Shown: one piece after another, positions 5,020 through 12,797 of the stretch
Numbering within the stretch: the first letter of the stretch is position 1
How the letters are laid out: each line of letters begins with the position of its first letter
Source: Nitrospirota bacterium
GTDB lineage: Bacteria > Nitrospirota > Thermodesulfovibrionia > Thermodesulfovibrionales > JdFR-86
Direction of reading: 5' to 3'
DNA length: 64,000 nt
Assembly (NCBI GenBank): GCA_963721805.1
Contig: CAVRJY010000001.1
Span: 640,001-704,000, forward strand
The notes under the pieces: model-generated
The model's database searches: none
Told to the model about the DNA's origin: nothing
The model's input: the letters and a program-made list of their open reading frames with translations, nothing else
Position numbers and translations under genes: made by a program

Positions 5020-5652
5020 ATGGACGACAAGAAGCGCGTATCAAAGATCATCGCCCTCCTTAGAAAACAATACCCGGTACTGAAGTGCGCGCTGCACTAT
5101 AAAACCCCCTTCGAACTTCTCGTGGCCACGATACTCTCGGCCCAGAGCACCGACGTGCAGGTCAACAAGCTCACCCCTGCGCTGTTTGCGAGGTACCGCG
5201 ATATAAAGGACTATGCCGGGGCACCAATAGCCGAACTCGAGGCCGCGGTGGGCAGCGTTAATTTCTTCAGGAACAAGGCGAAGAACATACAGGCCTCGGC
5301 GCGCAAGATCGTCTCGGAGTTCGGGGGCGAGGTGCCGCGCACGATGGCCGAACTCATAACGCTGCCCGGGGTGGCGCGAAAGACCGCGAACATCGTGCTT
5401 TCGGAGGCCTTCGGCGTCGTCGAGGGGATAGCGGTGGACACGCATGTCCTGAGGCTCGCAGGGAGGCTCGTGCTCAGCGCCAACACCGATCCGGTGAAGG
5501 TCGAGCGCGACCTCATGGCGAGCGTCCCGCGCAAGGACTGGGCCGCATTGTCGCTCATGCTGATCTCGCACGGACGCGCGGTATGCGCGGCCAAGACCCC
5601 GCGCCATTCGGAGTGCGTGTTAGCGGAGATCTGCCCCTCCAGAAATATTTGA
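5020..5652 (+). CDS. nth: Endonuclease III
   Basis: LSAQSTD, HhH LPGVARKTAN, AVDTHV; Fe-S motif with second Cys replaced by His. Confidence 0.93.
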   Translation: MDDKKRVSKIIALLRKQYPVLKCALHYKTPFELLVATILSAQSTDVQVNKLTPALFARYRDIKDYAGAPIAELEAAVGSVNFFRNKAKNIQASARKIVSEFGGEVPRTMAELITLPGVARKTANIVLSEAFGVVEGIAVDTHVLRLAGRLVLSANTDPVKVERDLMASVPRKDWAALSLMLISHGRAVCAAKTPRHSECVLAEICPSRNI

Positions 5653-5672
5653 AATCGGATTTAAAATCTTAC

Positions 5673-5702
5673 TTGACTTATCCATGTGTGGAGAGCTATA
5701 GT
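5673..5702 (+). promoter_or_regulatory. Sigma70-type promoter preceding a structured intergenic region
   Basis: TTGACT-18 nt-TATAGT. Confidence 0.5.
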
Positions 5703-5746
5703 CTTTGTTGCCTTAACCTTGCTGGAAGGTTTTCGATCCGGATTGA

Positions 5747-5944
5747 CGGGTCGGGGCTCGGCGCCATGCGTAGAAATGGCGGGAGTGACATAAAGAGGGC
5801 CGGCCAGGTGAGAAAGGAGGCGATTGGAGAGGCGGAAGGACGCTTTTCGGACGGGACCCGGTGACAGGGGCGAGAGTAATCTCAACCGCCACGGCCGGAG
5901 GAGGGGAATCACCCGACGATAAGCGAGCTGATAAGCCCGGCCCG
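5747..5944 (+). ncRNA. Candidate structured non-coding RNA or long leader (unassigned)
   Basis: Closing stem CGGGTCGGG/CCCGGCCCG, inner stems GCTCG/CGAGC, CGCCAT/ATGGCG, GGCCG/CGGCC, GAGA-GTAA-TCTC tetraloop; many GGA motifs. Confidence 0.35.
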
Positions 5945-6090
5945 ATTGCGATAAATTTTTAGTTGACGCCTCAGGTTTTGATGTATAATTGACGCAGAAA
6001 ATGAATCCCGTAAACTTTCCTTGAAGGTTCTCGGGAAGAAGTGCCGCATGCACAAGGCATGCTGGATAAAGGAAAAAGGAGAGATCAGGA

Positions 6091-6735
6091 ATGAAGCATG
6101 TAGCAAAATTTCTTCTCGTAGGTATCCTTGCCATAGCGTTTCTGGCCGGTTGCGCCAAGCAGCCCACCCAGGAGATGAATGACACCAAGGCAGCAGTAGC
6201 AGCAGTCGTTGCAGACCAGGGCGACAAGTACTCCCCCGAGGAGACCAAGAAGCTCAACGACGACCTCGCAGCAGCCAACGCCGAAGTGAAGGTCCAGGAC
6301 GAGAAGTTCTTCAAGAACTACGACAAGGCCAAGGGCATGCTCGCCAAGGTCAAGGCTGATTCAGATGCAGTGAAGGCCGCCCTCCCGGCTAAGAAGGAGA
6401 AGGCGAAGCAGGATGCAATGGCAGCTCTCGACGCGGCCAAGACCGCCGCTGCCGACGCGAAGGCTCTTCTTGCAAAGGCCCCCAAGGGCAAAGGCACCAC
6501 GCAGGACATCGAGGCCATGAAGGCTGATATGGCCGGTATCGACGAGTCGCTCCCGCAGATCCAGGGCATGATCGACAACGGTGACTACTTCGGCGCGCTC
6601 GAGAAGGCCAAGGCCGTCTCCGACAAGGCCGCAGCCATCTCCGCCCAGATCACCGAGGCGATGGCCAAGAAGAAGGTAGCAGCCCCGAAGGCCGCCAAGA
6701 AGGCCGCCAAGAAGGCCAAGAAGGCAGCGAAGTAA
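6091..6735 (+). CDS. Helical lipoprotein with Lys/Ala-rich C-terminal tail
   Basis: Lipobox LAGC, Ala/Lys-rich helical body, ends ...KKAAKKAKKAAK; AGGAG RBS. Confidence 0.9.
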   Translation: MKHVAKFLLVGILAIAFLAGCAKQPTQEMNDTKAAVAAVVADQGDKYSPEETKKLNDDLAAANAEVKVQDEKFFKNYDKAKGMLAKVKADSDAVKAALPAKKEKAKQDAMAALDAAKTAAADAKALLAKAPKGKGTTQDIEAMKADMAGIDESLPQIQGMIDNGDYFGALEKAKAVSDKAAAISAQITEAMAKKKVAAPKAAKKAAKKAKKAAK

Positions 6736-6763
6736 GGAGCATTGACGGGAAGCCGACGGTTTC

Positions 6764-7861
6764 GTGATACGGGACCTGATTAGAAGTTTGCTGGCATTGA
6801 CGGTACTGCTGGCCCTCATGGGCTGCAGCACCCCGCCCGCACCTCCAGAGGTTGAGCAAGCCAGAGCTCAGGACCTCAACCTCTGGAGGGAGGGCGCAAA
6901 ACTCCACATCCCCCTTGAGTATTCCGAATACACGGCACGCCTCGATAAGGCGCGCGAGGACTTCGCCAGGGAGTCCGCCAAGCTCCCGATCCTGATAAGC
7001 TACAAGGCTGTCACTGCGGAATTCGCTAACGTCATCACCGACGGTGACGCGCTCATGGGAAGGCTCAAGAGCCTCAAGGCCCAGCGCGAGGCGCTCGTCG
7101 CGTCGCGCATTGCCGAGGTAGAGGATTCGCTCCGGCGCGTGGACGAGCTCAGCTCGATGCTCAACGAAAAGCGCCTGTCGAGCCGCAACATCACCAAGGC
7201 CGAGATATTGATCAAGGAGGCCAGGGGCTACAACGCGAACTATGCCTTCGACAAGGCCGACAAGGCGCTCTCGGAGGCCGGCGTGCTCATCGATTTCGCG
7301 AAGTGCTCGGTCGTGCCCCTCCTGAAGCGCTATGTCGACGTCTCCCACATCAATCAGTGGAAGCGCCAGGTGGACGAGACGGTCGCTGCCTCCTCCGCCA
7401 AAGGCTCATATGCTATCATTATCAGTAAGCTTGACCGCAGACTCATCCTTTATAAGGCCGGAAGGCCATACAAGACCTTCCGCGTCGGCATCGGGCGCAA
7501 CGGCGCCTCGGACAAGCTCCACTCCGGGGACATGGCGACCCCCGAGGGCAGGTACTACATAACGAAAAAGAACCCCCGGAGCAGGTACTACAAGGCCATG
7601 CTCATCAACTATCCCAACGAAGATGACCGCGCCAGGTTCGCCTCGGCCAAGCGCCGGGGCGTGATCGGGCGCTCGGCCGGCATCGGCGGGCTGGTCGAGA
7701 TACACGGAGGCGGCGACGACAGCATGACATACGGCTGCATTGCGCTCGACAACAACGACCTGGACGACCTATATAGGCTGGTTGGGGTAGGCACGCCGGT
7801 GACTATAGTGGGCGTGACGGGCATGGACCCGGCGCTTTGCTCAAAGATGGAGGGCATATAA
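6764..7861 (+). CDS. Lipoprotein with C-terminal YkuD L,D-transpeptidase-family domain, YafK/DpaA-like
   Basis: Lipobox LMGC; TPEGRY, NPRSRYYKAMLINYPNEDD, IHGG...TYGCI. Confidence 0.85.
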   Translation: MIRDLIRSLLALTVLLALMGCSTPPAPPEVEQARAQDLNLWREGAKLHIPLEYSEYTARLDKAREDFARESAKLPILISYKAVTAEFANVITDGDALMGRLKSLKAQREALVASRIAEVEDSLRRVDELSSMLNEKRLSSRNITKAEILIKEARGYNANYAFDKADKALSEAGVLIDFAKCSVVPLLKRYVDVSHINQWKRQVDETVAASSAKGSYAIIISKLDRRLILYKAGRPYKTFRVGIGRNGASDKLHSGDMATPEGRYYITKKNPRSRYYKAMLINYPNEDDRARFASAKRRGVIGRSAGIGGLVEIHGGGDDSMTYGCIALDNNDLDDLYRLVGVGTPVTIVGVTGMDPALCSKMEGI

Positions 7862-7864
7862 TCC

Positions 7865-8491
7865 GTGAAGGCTTTGAAATGGGCTCTCATAGCGGTCTTC
7901 TCGCTGTTCGTGCTGGTCGAGGCGGCCGGGTATATCGTCTCTATCCGCAGCGGCAGGCATACTGAGGCTGTCTCGGAGAAGCCGAAAGACCCAGCAGCCC
8001 TAATGGCGGCGAATACGAAGCTTGAGGCGAAGCTCCGCGCGCTTGCGCCCAAGGGCGTCTACATAGTGATCGATACCGGCGGCAGCCGGCTTTATATCAG
8101 AAACGGCAGCGACGTCGTGCGCGAATGCATCGTCTCAAGCGGCAACGGAAACGTGCTCGAAGACCCCGCGACCGGCAAGAAATGGACCTTCGACACCCCT
8201 AGAGGCGAGTTCACCGTAAAGTCCAAGGCCCGCGAACCGGTCTGGATCAAGCCCAACTGGGCGTTCGTCGAAGAAGGCGAGTCGGCCCCGAAGGATTACA
8301 AGGACAGGGCCGAGGCTGGCGTTCTCGGCGACTATGCCCTGGGGATAGGAAACGGTTTCTTCATGCATGGTACGCTCTATACCAGGCTCCTGGGGCGAAA
8401 CGTAACCCACGGCTGCGTCCGTATGGGCGATGAAGACCTGGAGGCGCTGTTTAAGGCGTCGCCGCTCGGGACCCATGTATACATATTCTAG
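7865..8491 (+). CDS. L,D-transpeptidase (ErfK/YbiS-like YkuD domain)
   Basis: TPRGEF, PVWIKP.W, HGT...LGRNVTHGCVRM catalytic His/Cys motif. Confidence 0.9.
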   Translation: MKALKWALIAVFSLFVLVEAAGYIVSIRSGRHTEAVSEKPKDPAALMAANTKLEAKLRALAPKGVYIVIDTGGSRLYIRNGSDVVRECIVSSGNGNVLEDPATGKKWTFDTPRGEFTVKSKAREPVWIKPNWAFVEEGESAPKDYKDRAEAGVLGDYALGIGNGFFMHGTLYTRLLGRNVTHGCVRMGDEDLEALFKASPLGTHVYIF

Positions 8492-8500
8492 GAAAAGGCG

Positions 8501-9199
8501 ATGAAGATGAAAGCCATATATATGATTGTCTCCGCGCTCGCAGCCGCGCTCGCGCTGTTCATCTGCGCGGCGCCGGCCAGGGCCGCGGCCGACGCTTACT
8601 CTGAAAACAGGCTGCTTCAGGCCGAGCTTGCGCTCGCGATGAAACCCGACATATATTTCATCGTGGACCTGGATGCGAACAAGGTCTACTTCAAGGCGCG
8701 GGGCATAGCGCTGAAGGAGATCGCGATTCTGGGCAAGAGGTTCTGGGGCAGGACCCCGGAGATCGAGGCCAGAGAGCTGATCGGGAAGTCCGTGCCGATA
8801 GTGAGAAAGCGTGAGGAAATCTCCTCTGACGACGAGCCGGTGCCGGGCGCGACCACTCAGCCCCCGGTGCTGAAAAACGCAGCGCCCGCGCCTAACGCAT
8901 CCGCGTTCGAGGTCAATGCCCTCGAACTCAGGGACATGCCCGCCTCTTACAGCATTAAATTCGAAAAGGGCATCAGCCTGGTCGTCCGGCCCGAGCCCGT
9001 TGGGGCGGGGCAGAAGGCCCTTTCGCTGGCCCGCAAGGCAGGGTGGTACGCCTATATGCCGGTGCTGACACTTTGGAAGACCGTGAAGAAAGAGCCCGTC
9101 AGGGTGGTCCAGATCACCCTTAACGCCAAGGACGCGCAGGCCCTGTACTGGGCGCTCCATGACGGGAACTCGGTGATCTTCTACGCGCCGCAGAAGTAA
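8501..9199 (+). CDS. Secreted protein, possibly catalytically dead YkuD-like fold
   Basis: Signal peptide (A-R-A); YFIVDLDANKVYFK and ITLNAKDAQALY resemble YkuD terminal elements; no His-Cys motif. Confidence 0.65.
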   Translation: MKMKAIYMIVSALAAALALFICAAPARAAADAYSENRLLQAELALAMKPDIYFIVDLDANKVYFKARGIALKEIAILGKRFWGRTPEIEARELIGKSVPIVRKREEISSDDEPVPGATTQPPVLKNAAPAPNASAFEVNALELRDMPASYSIKFEKGISLVVRPEPVGAGQKALSLARKAGWYAYMPVLTLWKTVKKEPVRVVQITLNAKDAQALYWALHDGNSVIFYAPQK

Positions 9200-9313
9200 G
9201 TAACAGCCAGTCGACTGCTTATTTAAAGCGCTCCAAATCGCTTGATACTGCGTTGGGCTGCGAAGACGCGCCCTCTATGTACGTCTCAGTACACCATCGG
9301 GCGGTCTTCTCGC

Positions 9314-10408
9314 AGTGGATTGTCAAGCCAAGTGCAACAGGCGCGCATTTGCCGCAACCTCGGCGGGTGCCCTGTAGTCCAGCGTTTTTCTTGGTCTGTT
9401 GTTAATCTCATCAACGACGCGATCCAGCTGCTCCTGCGTTACTGTGTTGAAGTCGATCCCCTTCGGAAAGTACTGCCGCAGCAGCCCGTTGAGGTTTTCG
9501 TTCTGGCCGCGCTGCCATGAGCAATAGGGGTCGGCGAAGTATACGTCGATCCCCATCATGTATTTTAAGTCCCTGTAGCATGCAAACTCGCTGCCCCTGT
9601 CCACGGTCATGGTCATACGCATGCCCTGCCGCAGGCCTCCCAGCGCCGATACGGCGGCCTCCCTCAACGCCTCCGAGCCGGGCCTCGGCATCTTCCTCGA
9701 TATAAGGTAGAGGCTCTTGCGCTCGTTAAACGTTGCGATGCACGTTTTCCCGTCGAACCCGTAGACGGTATCCGCCTCCCAATCCCCGAAGCGTCCCTTC
9801 CGGACCACGATCTCGGGGCGCTGCCTGATGCTCAACGCCCCATTGAACCGGCCCCTGGTCTCAGGCCCCCGGGCTTTTCTGTAGCTCCTTCCCTTACGCC
9901 TCAGCATGCGATGCATCGAGCCCCCCATCGCCCTGTCCTGCCGTATCCATCTGTATAGCGTGGCAAAGGATATCCGCATCTCTGTGCTATGTGGATGGTC
10001 AAGCTTAAGGCGGCCCGACACCTGCTCCGGCGACCAACGCCTGCAAAGTCCCGCCATCGCATAGCCGATCAGGCCGTCCGGCCAGCGCTTCAGGCGTCTG
10101 CTCGCAAAATGCCTTCGGCGGACATAGAGCACGGTTGCGGCGTGCGCGCCATAGAAAGACTTCTTCGTGTTGCGCCGCAGCTCCCGGCTCACGCTCGATG
10201 GCGAGCGGCCAAGCTGGCGCCCGATCTCACGTATGCTCACCCCCGCATAACGCATCCTTGCGATGCCCTCCCGCTCATCAATGCTAAAATGACTGTAGCC
10301 CATCGTCCCTCCCTCTCTGTTTCGTCTGGTTGGTACTTGACTCTAACAGAACAGGATGACGATGGGCTTTTTCTTTCACAGGTGTTGCACTTCACATTAC
10401 AATCCGCG
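9314..10408 (-). mobile_element. IS30-family insertion sequence (~1095 bp) with 2-bp GC target duplication
   Basis: Terminal IRs GGATTGT...AAGTGCAACA at both ends; GC at 9312-9313 and 10409-10410. Confidence 0.92.
9323..10303 (-). CDS. IS30-family transposase
   Basis: HTH SSVSRELRRN, WSPEQ, GDWEADTV, DRGSEFA, PYCSWQRGQNEN.NGLLRQYFPKG. Confidence 0.96.
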   Translation of the reverse strand: MGYSHFSIDEREGIARMRYAGVSIREIGRQLGRSPSSVSRELRRNTKKSFYGAHAATVLYVRRRHFASRRLKRWPDGLIGYAMAGLCRRWSPEQVSGRLKLDHPHSTEMRISFATLYRWIRQDRAMGGSMHRMLRRKGRSYRKARGPETRGRFNGALSIRQRPEIVVRKGRFGDWEADTVYGFDGKTCIATFNERKSLYLISRKMPRPGSEALREAAVSALGGLRQGMRMTMTVDRGSEFACYRDLKYMMGIDVYFADPYCSWQRGQNENLNGLLRQYFPKGIDFNTVTQEQLDRVVDEINNRPRKTLDYRAPAEVAANARLLHLA

Positions 10409-10570: not shown

Positions 10571-11959
10571 CTAGCGGGACTCGATGCCTTCGAGGGTGAG
10601 GCTGCCCATAGCCGGGGCTATCATGGCCTGCCGGTCGAGCCCCCCGTTTATGAGCCTGATGTGCGAGGCGTCGGCCGGAAACTGCCCGAGCGTCGGGTCC
10701 ACCGGCACCCAGCCGTCGATGTAGACTTCGGGCCACGCGTGGTAATAAAACCTTCCACCCTGATAGACCAGCCCGAGGGCCATCCGCGTCGGGACTCCGG
10801 CCGAGCGCGCAAGCGCGGTATACAGCACCGTGTGCTCGTTGCAGTCGCCCTGCATCGTGCGCAGGACGTCCGAGGCCCGCGGGATGCTCACGGTCGGGGC
10901 CTTCCTGACGTTCCTGTAGACCCACTCGTATATGAGCCTGGCGCGTTCGGTCCGGTCAGAGGCCCCGGCGGTGATCTCGGCCGCTCGGGAGCGGATAGCC
11001 GGATCGTTGTCCTCTACGAACAGAGGGTCCGAGCCTGTGCGCTGCGCGGGCGGGTTGGAGTCGCCGCCTGCCGGGATCTCCATGCGCGCTATCTCGAGGA
11101 TATCCCCGTGGAGGGTCTGGCCGCCGCCCTGGAGGTCATACCGTGACAGTTCGATGCCGCGGAGCCGCAGCTTTAGGTATGAGACGCCGGGATCGAGGCG
11201 CAGGTTAAACGGTATGGACAAATCCGTGATGAGGTCGGCCGTTGCCCCGGTATCCGATACCGCCTGAGACCGGGGCTCTTTGATAAACGTGAGTCCCATG
11301 GATTCCTCCTTGACGATCTCGCCGTCCTTAGTGGCCCAGAGCACGGTCTTTGAGCCCAGAGTGCTGCCCTCGAGCCGCATGGCATCGACTGATTCACCCA
11401 TCACCCTTATGCCCTCGGGCCCGACGACCACGAGTTCGAGCGTGCCTTGTGCCGCGGTCGCGGGGTCCAGCAGCGGAAAGCGGAACCGCGCCCCGGGCTC
11501 CAGCATGCCCTCAAGCGGGAGCACGGAGGTCGATATAAGAGGAGACTCGTTCAGGACGAGCTGCTGCGTGCGGCTCACGCCGCCTGAATCAACCGTCAGG
11601 GCCACCTTGCCGTCTGCAACGTTGCCGGTAATGCGCATAGGGACGTCGGCCGTGACCGTTACCTTAAAGTCTATGGCGCGCATCTTGTCGTCGAGCCTCG
11701 CAGAGCAGTCTATGCGCATCTTCTTTTTCGCGCCCATCATCGCAAGGCGCAGCTCTGCGGTCTCTTCGAGCGAGTAGCCGTAAATCTCCCGCTTGAGCAC
11801 GTGGTGGGTGAAGCCTACCTTCGCGGACTTCTCGTAGATGCCCATCCATTGCTCCTCGAACTGGCGGGCGTAAGCCGGAGCGGCCGCAAGCAGCATCGCA
11901 AGCGCGATGGCGAGGCTAGTTATGAGGTATCTTGCGGTCTTTGTTCCTGAGGTATTCAT
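10571..11959 (-). CDS. Secreted transglutaminase-like domain protein
   Basis: Signal peptide; GDCNEH, HAWPEVY, DPT catalytic triad motifs. Confidence 0.88.
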   Translation of the reverse strand: MNTSGTKTARYLITSLAIALAMLLAAAPAYARQFEEQWMGIYEKSAKVGFTHHVLKREIYGYSLEETAELRLAMMGAKKKMRIDCSARLDDKMRAIDFKVTVTADVPMRITGNVADGKVALTVDSGGVSRTQQLVLNESPLISTSVLPLEGMLEPGARFRFPLLDPATAAQGTLELVVVGPEGIRVMGESVDAMRLEGSTLGSKTVLWATKDGEIVKEESMGLTFIKEPRSQAVSDTGATADLITDLSIPFNLRLDPGVSYLKLRLRGIELSRYDLQGGGQTLHGDILEIARMEIPAGGDSNPPAQRTGSDPLFVEDNDPAIRSRAAEITAGASDRTERARLIYEWVYRNVRKAPTVSIPRASDVLRTMQGDCNEHTVLYTALARSAGVPTRMALGLVYQGGRFYYHAWPEVYIDGWVPVDPTLGQFPADASHIRLINGGLDRQAMIAPAMGSLTLEGIESR

Positions 11960-12797
11960 ATAGCCCCGGCAGGCCCCCTATGGCAGTGGCCAGAAACATC
12001 GAAAACGAGAGCGCGGTCGCCATCGCGGGCTCCACGCCGGCCGATCCAAGCAGCAGCACCGTCGCGCCCTCCCTAAGCCCGATCCCGGAGATCGAGACCG
12101 GCAGAGTCGCTACGGTCGTGATTATCGGTATGAAGGCCAGAAACAGGATGAAAGGCACGTGCATCCCAAGCCCCAGCGACAGCACATAGACCGAGAATAT
12201 GATCGAGAGCTGCACGACGAGTGAGAGCGCCAGCGTCTTGGCGATCACGCCGGGCTTCCTCAGGTACGAGTGGAAGTAGTCGTATACCGAACTCAGGACC
12301 TTCAGCCTCTGGCCTATCCTCAGGCCGAATATCAGGAGGCTGGAAAGCACGGCCGCAAGCACGATCAGCGGGAGCACCCACTCGATCCACGAGCCCCTGA
12401 AATAGCTAAACCCGAAGGGATACGCGACGATGCCGAGGCCCATAAGGGACGTGAACCCGACGAACCGGTCCATGAACACGGACGACAGGGCCTGCGTGCC
12501 CTTGCCGGTCTGTTTGTAGAGGTAATAGATCTTCACCGCGTCGCCGCCGACGAGGCCCGGCAGAAAGGTATTGAAGAACGACCCGAGCAGGTAAAGCGGG
12601 AAGAGCCGCCTGATGCCGAACCGCTCGGGCAGGAGCATCTGCCAGCGAAACGACGAGACGAGCGTGGCGAAGACGTAAGTGACGACCGCGAAGACGAAGG
12701 CCCACGGGTTTATGGCCCGCAGGCTTGAGAATACCTTGTCGATCCCGGCCTTGGAGAAGATCAGATAGAGCGCCCCGCCGCTTACGGCGAGCTTCAC
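11916..12797 (-). CDS. UPF0104 / lysylphosphatidylglycerol-synthase-TM family flippase-like protein
   Basis: FRWQMLL, FFNTFLPG.VGGD, DR, LPVSISGIGLRE; start uncertain. Confidence 0.85.
   Translation of the reverse strand: MKLAVSGGALYLIFSKAGIDKVFSSLRAINPWAFVFAVVTYVFATLVSSFRWQMLLPERFGIRRLFPLYLLGSFFNTFLPGLVGGDAVKIYYLYKQTGKGTQALSSVFMDRFVGFTSLMGLGIVAYPFGFSYFRGSWIEWVLPLIVLAAVLSSLLIFGLRIGQRLKVLSSVYDYFHSYLRKPGVIAKTLALSLVVQLSIIFSVYVLSLGLGMHVPFILFLAFIPIITTVATLPVSISGIGLREGATVLLLGSAGVEPAMATALSFSMFLATAIGGLPGLYEYLRNKDRKIPHN

Follow-up and report, generated by a model that had tools for sequence, protein, structure and literature searches.

In a stretch of 64,000 nucleotides (nt) from a Nitrospirota bacterium (GenBank assembly GCA_963721805.1, contig CAVRJY010000001.1, positions 640,001 to 704,000; hereafter the window), we analysed a cluster of four genes, g1 to g4, at positions 6091-9199, which is conserved far more than chance would allow. 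The genes encode a helical lipoprotein (g1), a second lipoprotein that carries a YkuD domain (g2), a YkuD protein of the L,D-transpeptidase type (g3), and a predicted secreted protein with a YkuD fold (g4). In the Braun system of Escherichia coli the lipoprotein Lpp is attached to peptidoglycan by LdtA, LdtB and LdtC and detached by DpaA (also LdtF). From the sequence analyses presented here, the four-gene system is best called a putative L,D-transpeptidase-mediated tether between outer membrane and cell wall, with an unrelated lipoprotein family and a new enzyme architecture. In this reading g3 would attach g1 covalently to peptidoglycan, g2 would reverse the attachment or trim peptide stems, and g4 would be an accessory; we give it about an even chance (roughly 0.5), and our confidence that the four genes constitute one functional envelope module is much higher. 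An original prediction, made from the DNA alone, had described the cluster and interpreted it as a Braun-like tether module. The observation is confirmed and extended here and the interpretation is partly supported. New in this work are the two-bundle model of g1, the homology between g1 and the stalk of g2, the split that places g2 with DpaA and g3 with the transpeptidases, and the finding that g2 has the lysine that binds meso-diaminopimelic acid (mDAP) and lacks the arginine of transpeptidases.

Conservation of the four-gene cluster

The four genes had been described as a same-strand cluster, and all four open reading frames (ORFs) were found at 6091-9199 as predicted, all on the forward (+) strand, with gaps of 28, 3 and 9 nt between g1 and g2, g2 and g3, and g3 and g4 respectively. 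For g1, 841 homologues at E ≤ 1e-3 were counted among the 8000 candidates scored. A profile built from 30 homologues of g1 gave 380 relatives in a collection of species-representative genomes, of which the best 80 loci were kept (L001-L080). Searching these best 80 of the 380 loci by tblastn with the four window proteins, we found g1 in 80/80, g2 in 79/80, g3 in 75/80 and g4 in 71/80. The genes lie directly downstream of g1 on one strand, the order g1>g2>g3>g4 is always kept, and the ORFs abut or overlap. Where a gene was absent, this was mostly at a contig end; in one locus (L009), however, g1 genuinely stands alone.

Going by the labels in the records, which for metagenome-assembled genomes (MAGs) are unreliable in detail, the 80 loci come from Nitrospirota (28), Thermodesulfobacteriota (12), Aminicenantota (7), Acidobacteriota (4), Pseudomonadota (1), MAGs called 'Deltaproteobacteria' and mapped to Myxococcota (9), Bacillota-labelled MAGs (6) and unlabelled records (13). 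Complete single-contig genomes of the window's phylum are among the carriers. For the g1 of a Geobacteraceae-labelled locus (L049), the homologues among the 120 matches listed were metagenomic proteins only. In a distant branch of the window's phylum (family f29, in which g1 is found at E ~1e-44), the full four-gene cluster was present in a further five loci (L081-L085).

The profiles of g1 and g4 were also applied to 401 sampled genomes of the window's phylum, where g1 was found in 79 and g4 in 71. Both occurred together in 68 genomes; 11 had g1 without g4, 3 had g4 without g1, and 319 had neither. Of the three matches to g4 without g1, one lies where a contig begins and one has a weak score (E 7.5e-6). 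The expected conservation of the gene neighbourhood is therefore borne out: the same order and strand recur in 71-79 of the 80 loci, in Nitrospirota-, Aminicenantes/Acidobacteriota- and Thermodesulfobacteriota-labelled records and thus in at least three labelled phyla, and g1 and g4 co-occur. An accident of gene calling, or a peculiarity of this genome, might have been suspected from the long Ala/Lys tail of g1, the only feature of the cluster that is local. Against it stand the recurrence of the gene order in several phyla and the co-occurrence of g1 and g4, by which an accidental grouping is ruled out, and we would give it next to no chance.

The lipoprotein g1 and its candidate acceptor lysine

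Gene g1 (6091-6735, +) encodes a protein of 214 amino acids (aa) with the lipobox LAGC at residues 18-21. Its ORF translation starts MKHVAKFLLVGILAIAFLAGC and has the C-terminal end KKAAKKAKKAAK. The cysteine of the lipobox, Cys21, is invariant in alignments of 30 and of 73 homologues. The protein matches the Pfam family DUF4398 (PF14346) below threshold (22.9 bits versus a cut-off of 27.9), and many of its homologues bear precomputed PF14346 matches. The LPP family (PF04728) gave no match in g1 at E ≤ 0.1 and 0 matches across the genome (94% complete).

An AlphaFold model of g1 made with a 73-row alignment has a mean predicted local distance difference test score (pLDDT) of 89 and a predicted template modelling score (pTM) of 0.70, with helices at residues 26-41, 49-70, 78-128, 137-162 and 166-213. 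Together with the lipobox, this all-helical model upholds the original description of g1 as a helical lipoprotein. The protein models as two three-helix bundles that share one continuous helix of 50 residues (78-128), in the manner of spectrin repeats. Comparison with the Protein Data Bank (PDB) gave as top match the DUF4398 protein PA2901 (4fm3; Z 11.2, 93 aligned residues, rmsd 3.9), which covers model residues 22-122. The second bundle (residues 102-190) matched 9rgv, in which one chain forms a three-helix bundle (Z 10.0, 88 aligned, rmsd 1.9), and both bundles together matched the N-domain of Borrelia BB0323 (6rjw; Z 10.4, 160 aligned, rmsd 7.0), a Z-score within the range that is common for helical proteins. 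Foldseek found nothing for the g1 model in the PDB at E ≤ 0.001, and gave BB0323 a probability of 0.93. Judged from helix topology and fold matches rather than from coordinates, g1 would be a rod of about 7-8 nm (50 residues x 0.15 nm = 7.5 nm), with the lipid anchor at one end and, at the other, a loop (residues 129-136) and the C-terminal tail.

The loop and the tail are the two places where an acceptor lysine might be expected, and their conservation differs. When 1.84 billion cluster representatives were searched with a profile, 2980 members of the family were found at E ≤ 1e-3, of which 1268 reached ≤ 1e-10 and 302 reached ≤ 1e-30. From the best 150 of the 2980, restricted to 185-250 aa, we obtained 144 representatives (50% identity clusters), 6 having been dropped by length. 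The loop reads K-A-P-K-G-K-G-T in g1 and contains a near-invariant lysine, K134, within the motif A-P-x-G-K-G. Position 134 is Lys in 141 of the 144 representatives and Arg in 1, and ranks second in conservation, behind P25 (142/144). Its neighbours A130 (133/144), P131 (135/144) and G133 (124/144) are also well kept, and the motif AP[KRA]GKG is present in the g1 of 80/80 loci. At other basic positions Lys and Arg are interchangeable; position 75, for one, has R in 98 of the 144 and K in 40. The near-exclusive use of Lys at position 134, while other basic positions swap, fits a requirement for the amine itself.

The basic C-terminal tail (residues 193-214) had been the favoured site in the original prediction, which saw in its long run of Ala and Lys a set of multiple acceptor lysines. 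This long tail is peculiar to the g1 of this genome and its nearest relative, and other homologues have a short basic tail. The tail not being conserved, we dropped the idea of a multi-site acceptor there. A lysine is found among the final five residues of 104 of the 144 representatives, and at least two K or R among the final six of 130. Among the 120 closest homologues 103 have K as the last residue itself (the others being R 12, Q 3, M 1 and N 1), as do 60 of the 80 loci (R 17, Q 2, S 1), and in the distant branch with the full cluster (L081-L085) the tails end in Q, H, K, Q and K. The pattern of conservation makes K134 a better acceptor candidate than the C-terminal Lys tail.

Several unusual members of the family were observed. 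A two-gene variant (L087, 1983-3775) is the only fetched locus with a g1 that lacks the loop lysine; YPETEH replaces AP-x-GK-G, no g3 or g4 is found nearby, and the catalytic Cys of its g2 has become Ser. This looks like the joint decay of a substrate site and its enzyme. One homologue of 275 aa (P0122) has an extra copy of the first bundle and is presumably a longer, three-bundle rod, with the APKGKG loop retained. In another protein of 897 aa (P0181) a g1-like stretch with the loop motif APAGKD is joined to a subtilase domain. A search for longer fused forms of g1 (376-2000 aa) found none at E ≤ 1e-5, which is weak evidence.

The YkuD enzymes g2 and g3

The second gene, g2 (6764-7861, +; 365 aa; lipobox LMGC with Cys21), consists of two parts, a g1-like stalk (residues 1-174) and a YkuD domain (approximately 212-350) with His314, Cys325 and Ala327. 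In a profile comparison with hhalign, residues 1-174 of g2 aligned with residues 1-178 of g1 over 172 columns, with a probability of 98% and E 1.5e-13. The Lys loop of g1 is absent from the stalk of g2. The catalytic part matches the Pfam YkuD family (E 1.7e-19, residues 216-348), and when compared with solved structures it is closest to DpaA (8ikr, E 2.3e-7), the true transpeptidases matching at E ≥ 0.67 only. Of the 36 alignment rows, all have His314 and 35 have Cys325. Across the 80 loci one g2 ORF (L035) is truncated, and the catalytic Cys was found in 76/76 full-length g2 ORFs; the residue two positions after it is Ala in 56, Ser in 16 and Gly in 4, and never Arg.

The hydrolase-type YkuD enzymes are described as having in common an mDAP-binding lysine (Lys83 in DpaA), long L1 and L3 loops, and, at the second position after the catalytic Cys, a buried alanine (Ala145 in DpaA) where transpeptidases expose an arginine (PMC10653827). 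The equivalent of Lys83 is K in 36/36 g2 rows. At the position of the Lys-packing Tyr109, g2 has Y (22) or F (14), and at that of Arg108 mostly R (18) or K (12); all three residues are tied to substrate binding in the study of the DpaA structure. Lys83 is also present in LD-carboxypeptidases, and therefore cannot separate amidase from carboxypeptidase activity.

The third gene, g3 (7865-8491, +; 208 aa), encodes one N-terminal hydrophobic helix, which may be either a signal peptide or a membrane anchor, followed by a YkuD domain (PF03734; 74.3 bits versus a cut-off of 23.4, E 2e-20, residues 65-207). It has the motif His168 ... Thr-His182-Gly-Cys184-Val-Arg186, in which H168, H182, G183 and C184 are invariant in 34 rows and R186 is at least 90% conserved; the Cys with Arg at +2 was found in 73/73 ORFs. 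Among solved structures the closest is that of an L,D-transpeptidase from Klebsiella (4lzh, E 6.7e-8), and the best NCBIfam matches are two models of E. coli-type L,D-transpeptidases (35.3 and 33.5 bits versus cut-offs of 583 and 517).

A tree was calculated from 76 YkuD domains: 36 from g2, 33 of 34 from g3 (that of L008 was left out for its masked X residues), six E. coli K-12 enzymes and the YcbB-like protein of the genome to which the window belongs. The split between the 36 g2 domains with E. coli DpaA on one side and the 33 g3 domains with LdtA-E and the YcbB-like protein on the other had a Shimodaira-Hasegawa-like approximate likelihood ratio (SH-aLRT) support of 99, in a quick search with a long branch to DpaA (3.53) and with no LD-carboxypeptidase, such as Pgp2 or Csd6, among the domains compared. 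The g3 domains group in a single clade (support 85) whose sister is the entire set of E. coli transpeptidases, and the YcbB-like protein pairs with E. coli LdtD (support 99). The g2 proteins thus stand apart from all the transpeptidases, including the 3-3 cross-linking ones with which they might have grouped, and the original description of g2 as a stalked lipoprotein with a DpaA-like catalytic domain agrees both with this position and with 8ikr as its best solved relative. For g3, which had been described as ErfK/YbiS-like, the canonical transpeptidase motif held in 73/73 ORFs and the closer affinity did not, g3 being sister to all the E. coli transpeptidases and not to LdtA-C. We conclude that g2 is probably a hydrolase-type YkuD enzyme related to DpaA and borne on a g1-like stalk, its activity being predicted from sequence.

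In the whole genome (2.78 Mb, 94% complete) there are three YkuD matches only: g2, g3 and a YcbB/LdtD-like enzyme of 524 aa encoded elsewhere (G000:C1:1008071-1009645, +; positions 1071-2645 of locus L097). The latter could be the maker of 3-3 cross-links. Matches to the OmpA domain number seven in the same genome.

The YkuD fold of g4

The fourth gene, g4 (8501-9199, +; 232 aa), has a signal-like N-terminus (...ARA/AAD) and is predicted to be secreted. No Pfam or NCBIfam model matched it. Its structural model (pLDDT 88.7) has as its top 20 PDB matches chains of the L,D-transpeptidase fold (Z 8.5-4.3), ahead of the first unrelated row at Z 3.4, and the best Foldseek match is Ldtfm (2hkl, E 2.2e-3). 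Of the 71 g4 ORFs 39 were selected for an alignment, in which no His or Cys is conserved. Residues that are invariant in it are L39, Y52, G68, E142, M146, P147 and W217, and the conserved motifs are A-L-E-L-x-D-M-P (with E142, D145, M146 and P147) and Y216-W217. Profile comparison of g4 with g2 gave no similarity, so that the link to YkuD is one of fold alone. In the ESM Atlas, g4 falls among unnamed 'hypothetical protein' clusters, and the closest named cluster, YkuD at 0.78, is a lead only. We filed g4 as a pseudo-enzyme because it has no conserved His or Cys, no family match and no profile similarity to g2, and by its model it is a catalytically dead YkuD-fold protein, as had been suspected when it was described as a secreted and possibly inactive YkuD-like protein.

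Co-folding of g1 (residues 22-214) and g3 (45-208) with g4 (29-232) as the partner gave scores of 0.74, 0.76 and 0.73. With the partner replaced the scores were 0.00 and 0.00, and with g1 replaced 0.67; the score is therefore not specific to g1 and speaks neither for nor against binding.

Proposed mechanism and alternatives

We propose that g1 would stand as a rod-shaped lipoprotein on the outer membrane, with a tip that bears the K134 loop and the short basic tail. The transpeptidase g3 would take a tetrapeptide stem of peptidoglycan as acyl donor and transfer it to the epsilon-amine of a lysine at this tip, perhaps K134, perhaps a tail lysine, or both, and the outer membrane would thereby be tied covalently to the wall. 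Since the stalk of g2 is homologous to g1, the active site of g2 is expected to be level with the tip of g1, where it may cut the bond between g1 and mDAP or trim the stems, making the tether reversible. g4 would be a non-catalytic accessory, either a regulator or a partner that presents the substrate. In this scheme we infer the outer-membrane location, the covalent link, the choice of lysine and the roles of both g2 and g4.

Several observations weigh against this scheme. The last residue of g1 is K in only 48 of the 144 representatives (R 43, other 53), and the basic tail is therefore general and the terminal Lys is not; of the Lys tail expected in orthologues, the Lys ending held in close homologues and in most of the 80 loci, and was lost in the wider family. 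The geometry of the rod has the indirect origin given above. For g2, the best NCBIfam model is LdtF_DpaA_YafK (NF040599), at 38.8 bits far below its equivalog cut-off of 365, and the cleft residues Gln86, Lys130 and Tyr131 of DpaA are lost (position 86 being mostly Ala, 130 Gly and 131 Leu; n=36), three of the four that are specific to DpaA, of which Arg108 is the one kept. The LD-carboxypeptidases Pgp2 and Csd6 match g2 at E ~2e-4, and by its sequence g2 cannot be told apart from an LD-carboxypeptidase. The N-terminus of g3 looks more like a membrane anchor than a cleaved signal peptide such as a soluble periplasmic enzyme would have, and an anchored g3 would also fit a regulated inner-membrane enzyme. 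Moreover, g3 is no nearer to LdtA-C, the enzymes that attach Lpp, than to other transpeptidases of E. coli, and could be a plain 3-3 cross-linker. Lastly, there are partial loci, with g1 and g3 only (L086, L089), with g1 and g2 only (L087, L088, L090), or with the lone g1 of L009.

Some of these points would suit a non-covalent regulator, which is the main rival. E. coli offers a model in LpoA and LpoB, which activate PBP1A and PBP1B. By analogy g1 would reach the wall or an inner-membrane-anchored g3 and switch g3 (or g2) on, with the loop as docking site, and the module would serve to adjust 3-3 cross-linking and the trimming of stems instead of tethering the membrane. No surface of g1 is better conserved than the tip loop, as would be expected of a protein contact, the N-terminal hydrophobic helix of g3, with its conserved Glu and Gly, may be the anchor, a dead paralogue such as g4 suits a regulatory complex, and the terminal Lys of g1 is not conserved across the family. 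However, a docking lysine should tolerate Arg more often than in 1 of 144 sequences, the closest counterpart of g2 is DpaA, the only YkuD enzyme known for cutting a bond between a protein and the wall, the g1-like stalk of g2 is more simply explained by action at the tip of g1, and a YcbB-type cross-linker is already in the genome; we regard a regulator as unlikely, if well worth keeping in view. We think it more improbable still that the module remodels the wall, with g1 as a passive spacer. There g3 would make 3-3 cross-links, g2 would trim tetrapeptides on the outer side of the wall as an LD-carboxypeptidase, the role that Pgp2 has in Campylobacter and Csd6 in Helicobacter, and g1, a periplasmic strut or a stalk-only paralogue competing with g2, would undergo no direct chemistry. 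Such a role would agree with the matches of g2 to Pgp2 and Csd6, with which it has the general features of hydrolase-type YkuD enzymes in common, with the three missing DpaA-specific residues, and with the loci that have g1 and g2 only or g1 and g3 only. It leaves unexplained the near-invariant Lys loop of g1, the fact that no other gene accompanies the YkuD genes as constantly as g1 does, and the place of g1 as first gene of the operon, behind the only strong ribosome-binding site.

We favour the covalent tether over plain wall remodelling because a rod-shaped lipoprotein is constantly paired with YkuD genes, because the position at the tip of the rod is conserved as Lys only, because the DpaA-like hydrolase sits on a copy of the same rod, and because a separate YcbB-type enzyme elsewhere in the genome can serve ordinary cross-links.

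Surroundings of the cluster

A Shine-Dalgarno sequence read off the DNA, AAGGAG (6076-6081, +), lies 9 nt 5' of the ATG of g1. Between g1 and the gene for endonuclease III upstream there is a non-coding leader of about 440 nt (5653-6090), the middle part of which is GC-rich, and at its 3' end are two overlapping promoter-like sites. One, found by eye, is the pair TTGACG (5963-5968, +) and TATAAT (5984-5989, +) with a 15-nt spacer; the other, found by a pattern scan, is TTGACG-16-TAAACT (5989-6016, +). Both are consensus matches only, and the scan, with 2 sites in the 4-kb region versus 1.2 expected from shuffles, is weak evidence. A pattern for sigma-54-type promoters was found nowhere 5' of g1, and in the whole window it occurred at 14 sites versus 24 expected. 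A search of 5500-6200 against Rfam gave no match at E ≤ 0.1, and a query for RNA runs over 6000-9300 listed none.

The 5' neighbours of the cluster are argD-like, argF-like and endonuclease III genes. Directly 3' of g4 is a transposase-like ORF (9323-10303, -; 326 aa) with an N-terminal HTH_38 domain (E 7.5e-16), which resembles a copy of an insertion sequence and is presumably IS30-like. It comes between the operon and two genes further downstream, one transglutaminase-like (10571-11959, -) and the other of the LPG_synthase_TM type (11916-12797, -).

Among the 80 loci no gene family beyond the four is conserved in the flanks, the best being found in only 24. This is a histidine kinase with a HAMP domain (24/80), with a sigma-54-dependent response regulator ranking second in frequency (23/80); both are on the same strand as the cluster, up- or downstream of it (examples are L049 9209-10660 and L013 3894-5294), and neither is near the cluster in the window. 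In 13 of the 80 loci a small secreted protein of approximately 137-139 aa, rich in Pro and Ala along one stretch and in Lys at its C-terminus, is encoded on the same strand just 5' of g1 (for example L056 5347-5766 and L009 160-573).

Comparison with known systems

Lpp is the textbook link between outer membrane and wall, and the other wall-tethered proteins named in the available text of a 2025 review (PMC12729407) are all proteobacterial. If the tether proposed here is real, covalent tethering would be an old or repeatedly invented solution, found in at least three further phyla, and a self-contained operon of substrate and enzymes would be open to study in vitro. It would also give a first role to DUF4398-type lipoproteins and a first example of a YkuD pseudo-enzyme, and the stalk-mounted hydrolase suggests a way to position an enzyme at the wall from the outer membrane. 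A full-text search, with subscription-only papers and supplements outside its scope, found no literature on this operon; a full-text search judged on titles and the start of abstracts found none on the function of DUF4398, and a literature search found no inactive YkuD pseudo-enzymes. We put forward tentatively, as a possibility that is rather doubtful at present, that covalent lipoprotein tethering arose independently outside the Proteobacteria, with a spectrin-like rod linked to mDAP by an internal loop lysine at its tip and not by its C-terminus, a dedicated transpeptidase, a DpaA-like release enzyme on a matching rod that acts as a 'ruler', and control by a dead paralogue.

Wall-tethered proteins listed in an L,D-transpeptidase review of December 2025 (PMC12729407) are Lpp, LimB, Lpg1810, OutB and beta-barrels of Coxiella and Brucella, and all those in the text available are from Proteobacteria. 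In the same source Coxiella LimB is linked to the wall through Lys21, and Legionella Lpg1810 through a C-terminal Lys-Thr (PMC12729407). In both cases an outer-membrane protein is bonded to mDAP by way of a lysine other than the final residue, which is a precedent for K134, or a sub-terminal lysine of the tail, as acceptor. They differ from g1, as far as their descriptions allow a comparison, in being restricted to the Gammaproteobacteria, and the available text describes no dedicated operon or detaching enzyme for them. A further candidate link, WP_009060351 of Methylacidiphilum fumariolicum, is an abundant lipoprotein of the peptidoglycan fraction proposed to connect outer membrane and wall (PMC10260701). 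Compared by description only, it differs from g1 in its 139 residues and its restriction to the Verrucomicrobiota, and no linked YkuD genes are named in the text available.

By structure, the first bundle of g1 resembles the DUF4398 protein PA2901 of P. aeruginosa (4fm3), with which it aligns over 93 of 95 residues at Z 11.2. The 95 residues of that protein make up one bundle only; g1 has two, together with the Lys loop, and is below the Pfam cut-off. The best whole-length match, the N-domain of Borrelia burgdorferi BB0323 (6rjw/6rjx), is likewise a two-bundle helical lipoprotein domain. BB0323 presumably has a wall-binding LysM domain at its C-terminus, which would make it a non-covalent counterpart of g1; g1 has no sequence similarity to it and no wall-binding domain, only the loop and tail.

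In E. coli K-12, lpp and ldtE are adjacent and convergent (L096 5422-6726), and a tether gene and a YkuD gene are thus linkable there too. The distance between outer membrane and wall in E. coli is given as about 85 A (PMC12729407), and the predicted rod of g1, at about 7.5 nm, is near to it. The system described here is also like that of Lpp in combining a putative outer-membrane lipoprotein with YkuD enzymes of the transpeptidase type and of the DpaA-like type. It differs in the lipoprotein, Lpp being a coiled coil of 58 residues and g1 a double three-helix bundle of 190 residues with no similarity to Lpp, and in the lysine, since it is an internal loop lysine that the g1 family as a whole conserves, a terminal lysine like that of Lpp being usual only among the closer homologues. 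Unlike in E. coli, substrate and enzymes are encoded in one operon to which a dead YkuD paralogue has been added, and, in contrast to DpaA, g2 is itself a lipoprotein on a g1-like stalk. Lpp has been reported from the Aeromonadales, Alteromonadales, Enterobacterales and Vibrionales only, according to the available text of the source (bioRxiv 10.1101/2021.05.31.446380), whereas the carriers of the four-gene cluster are outside the Proteobacteria.

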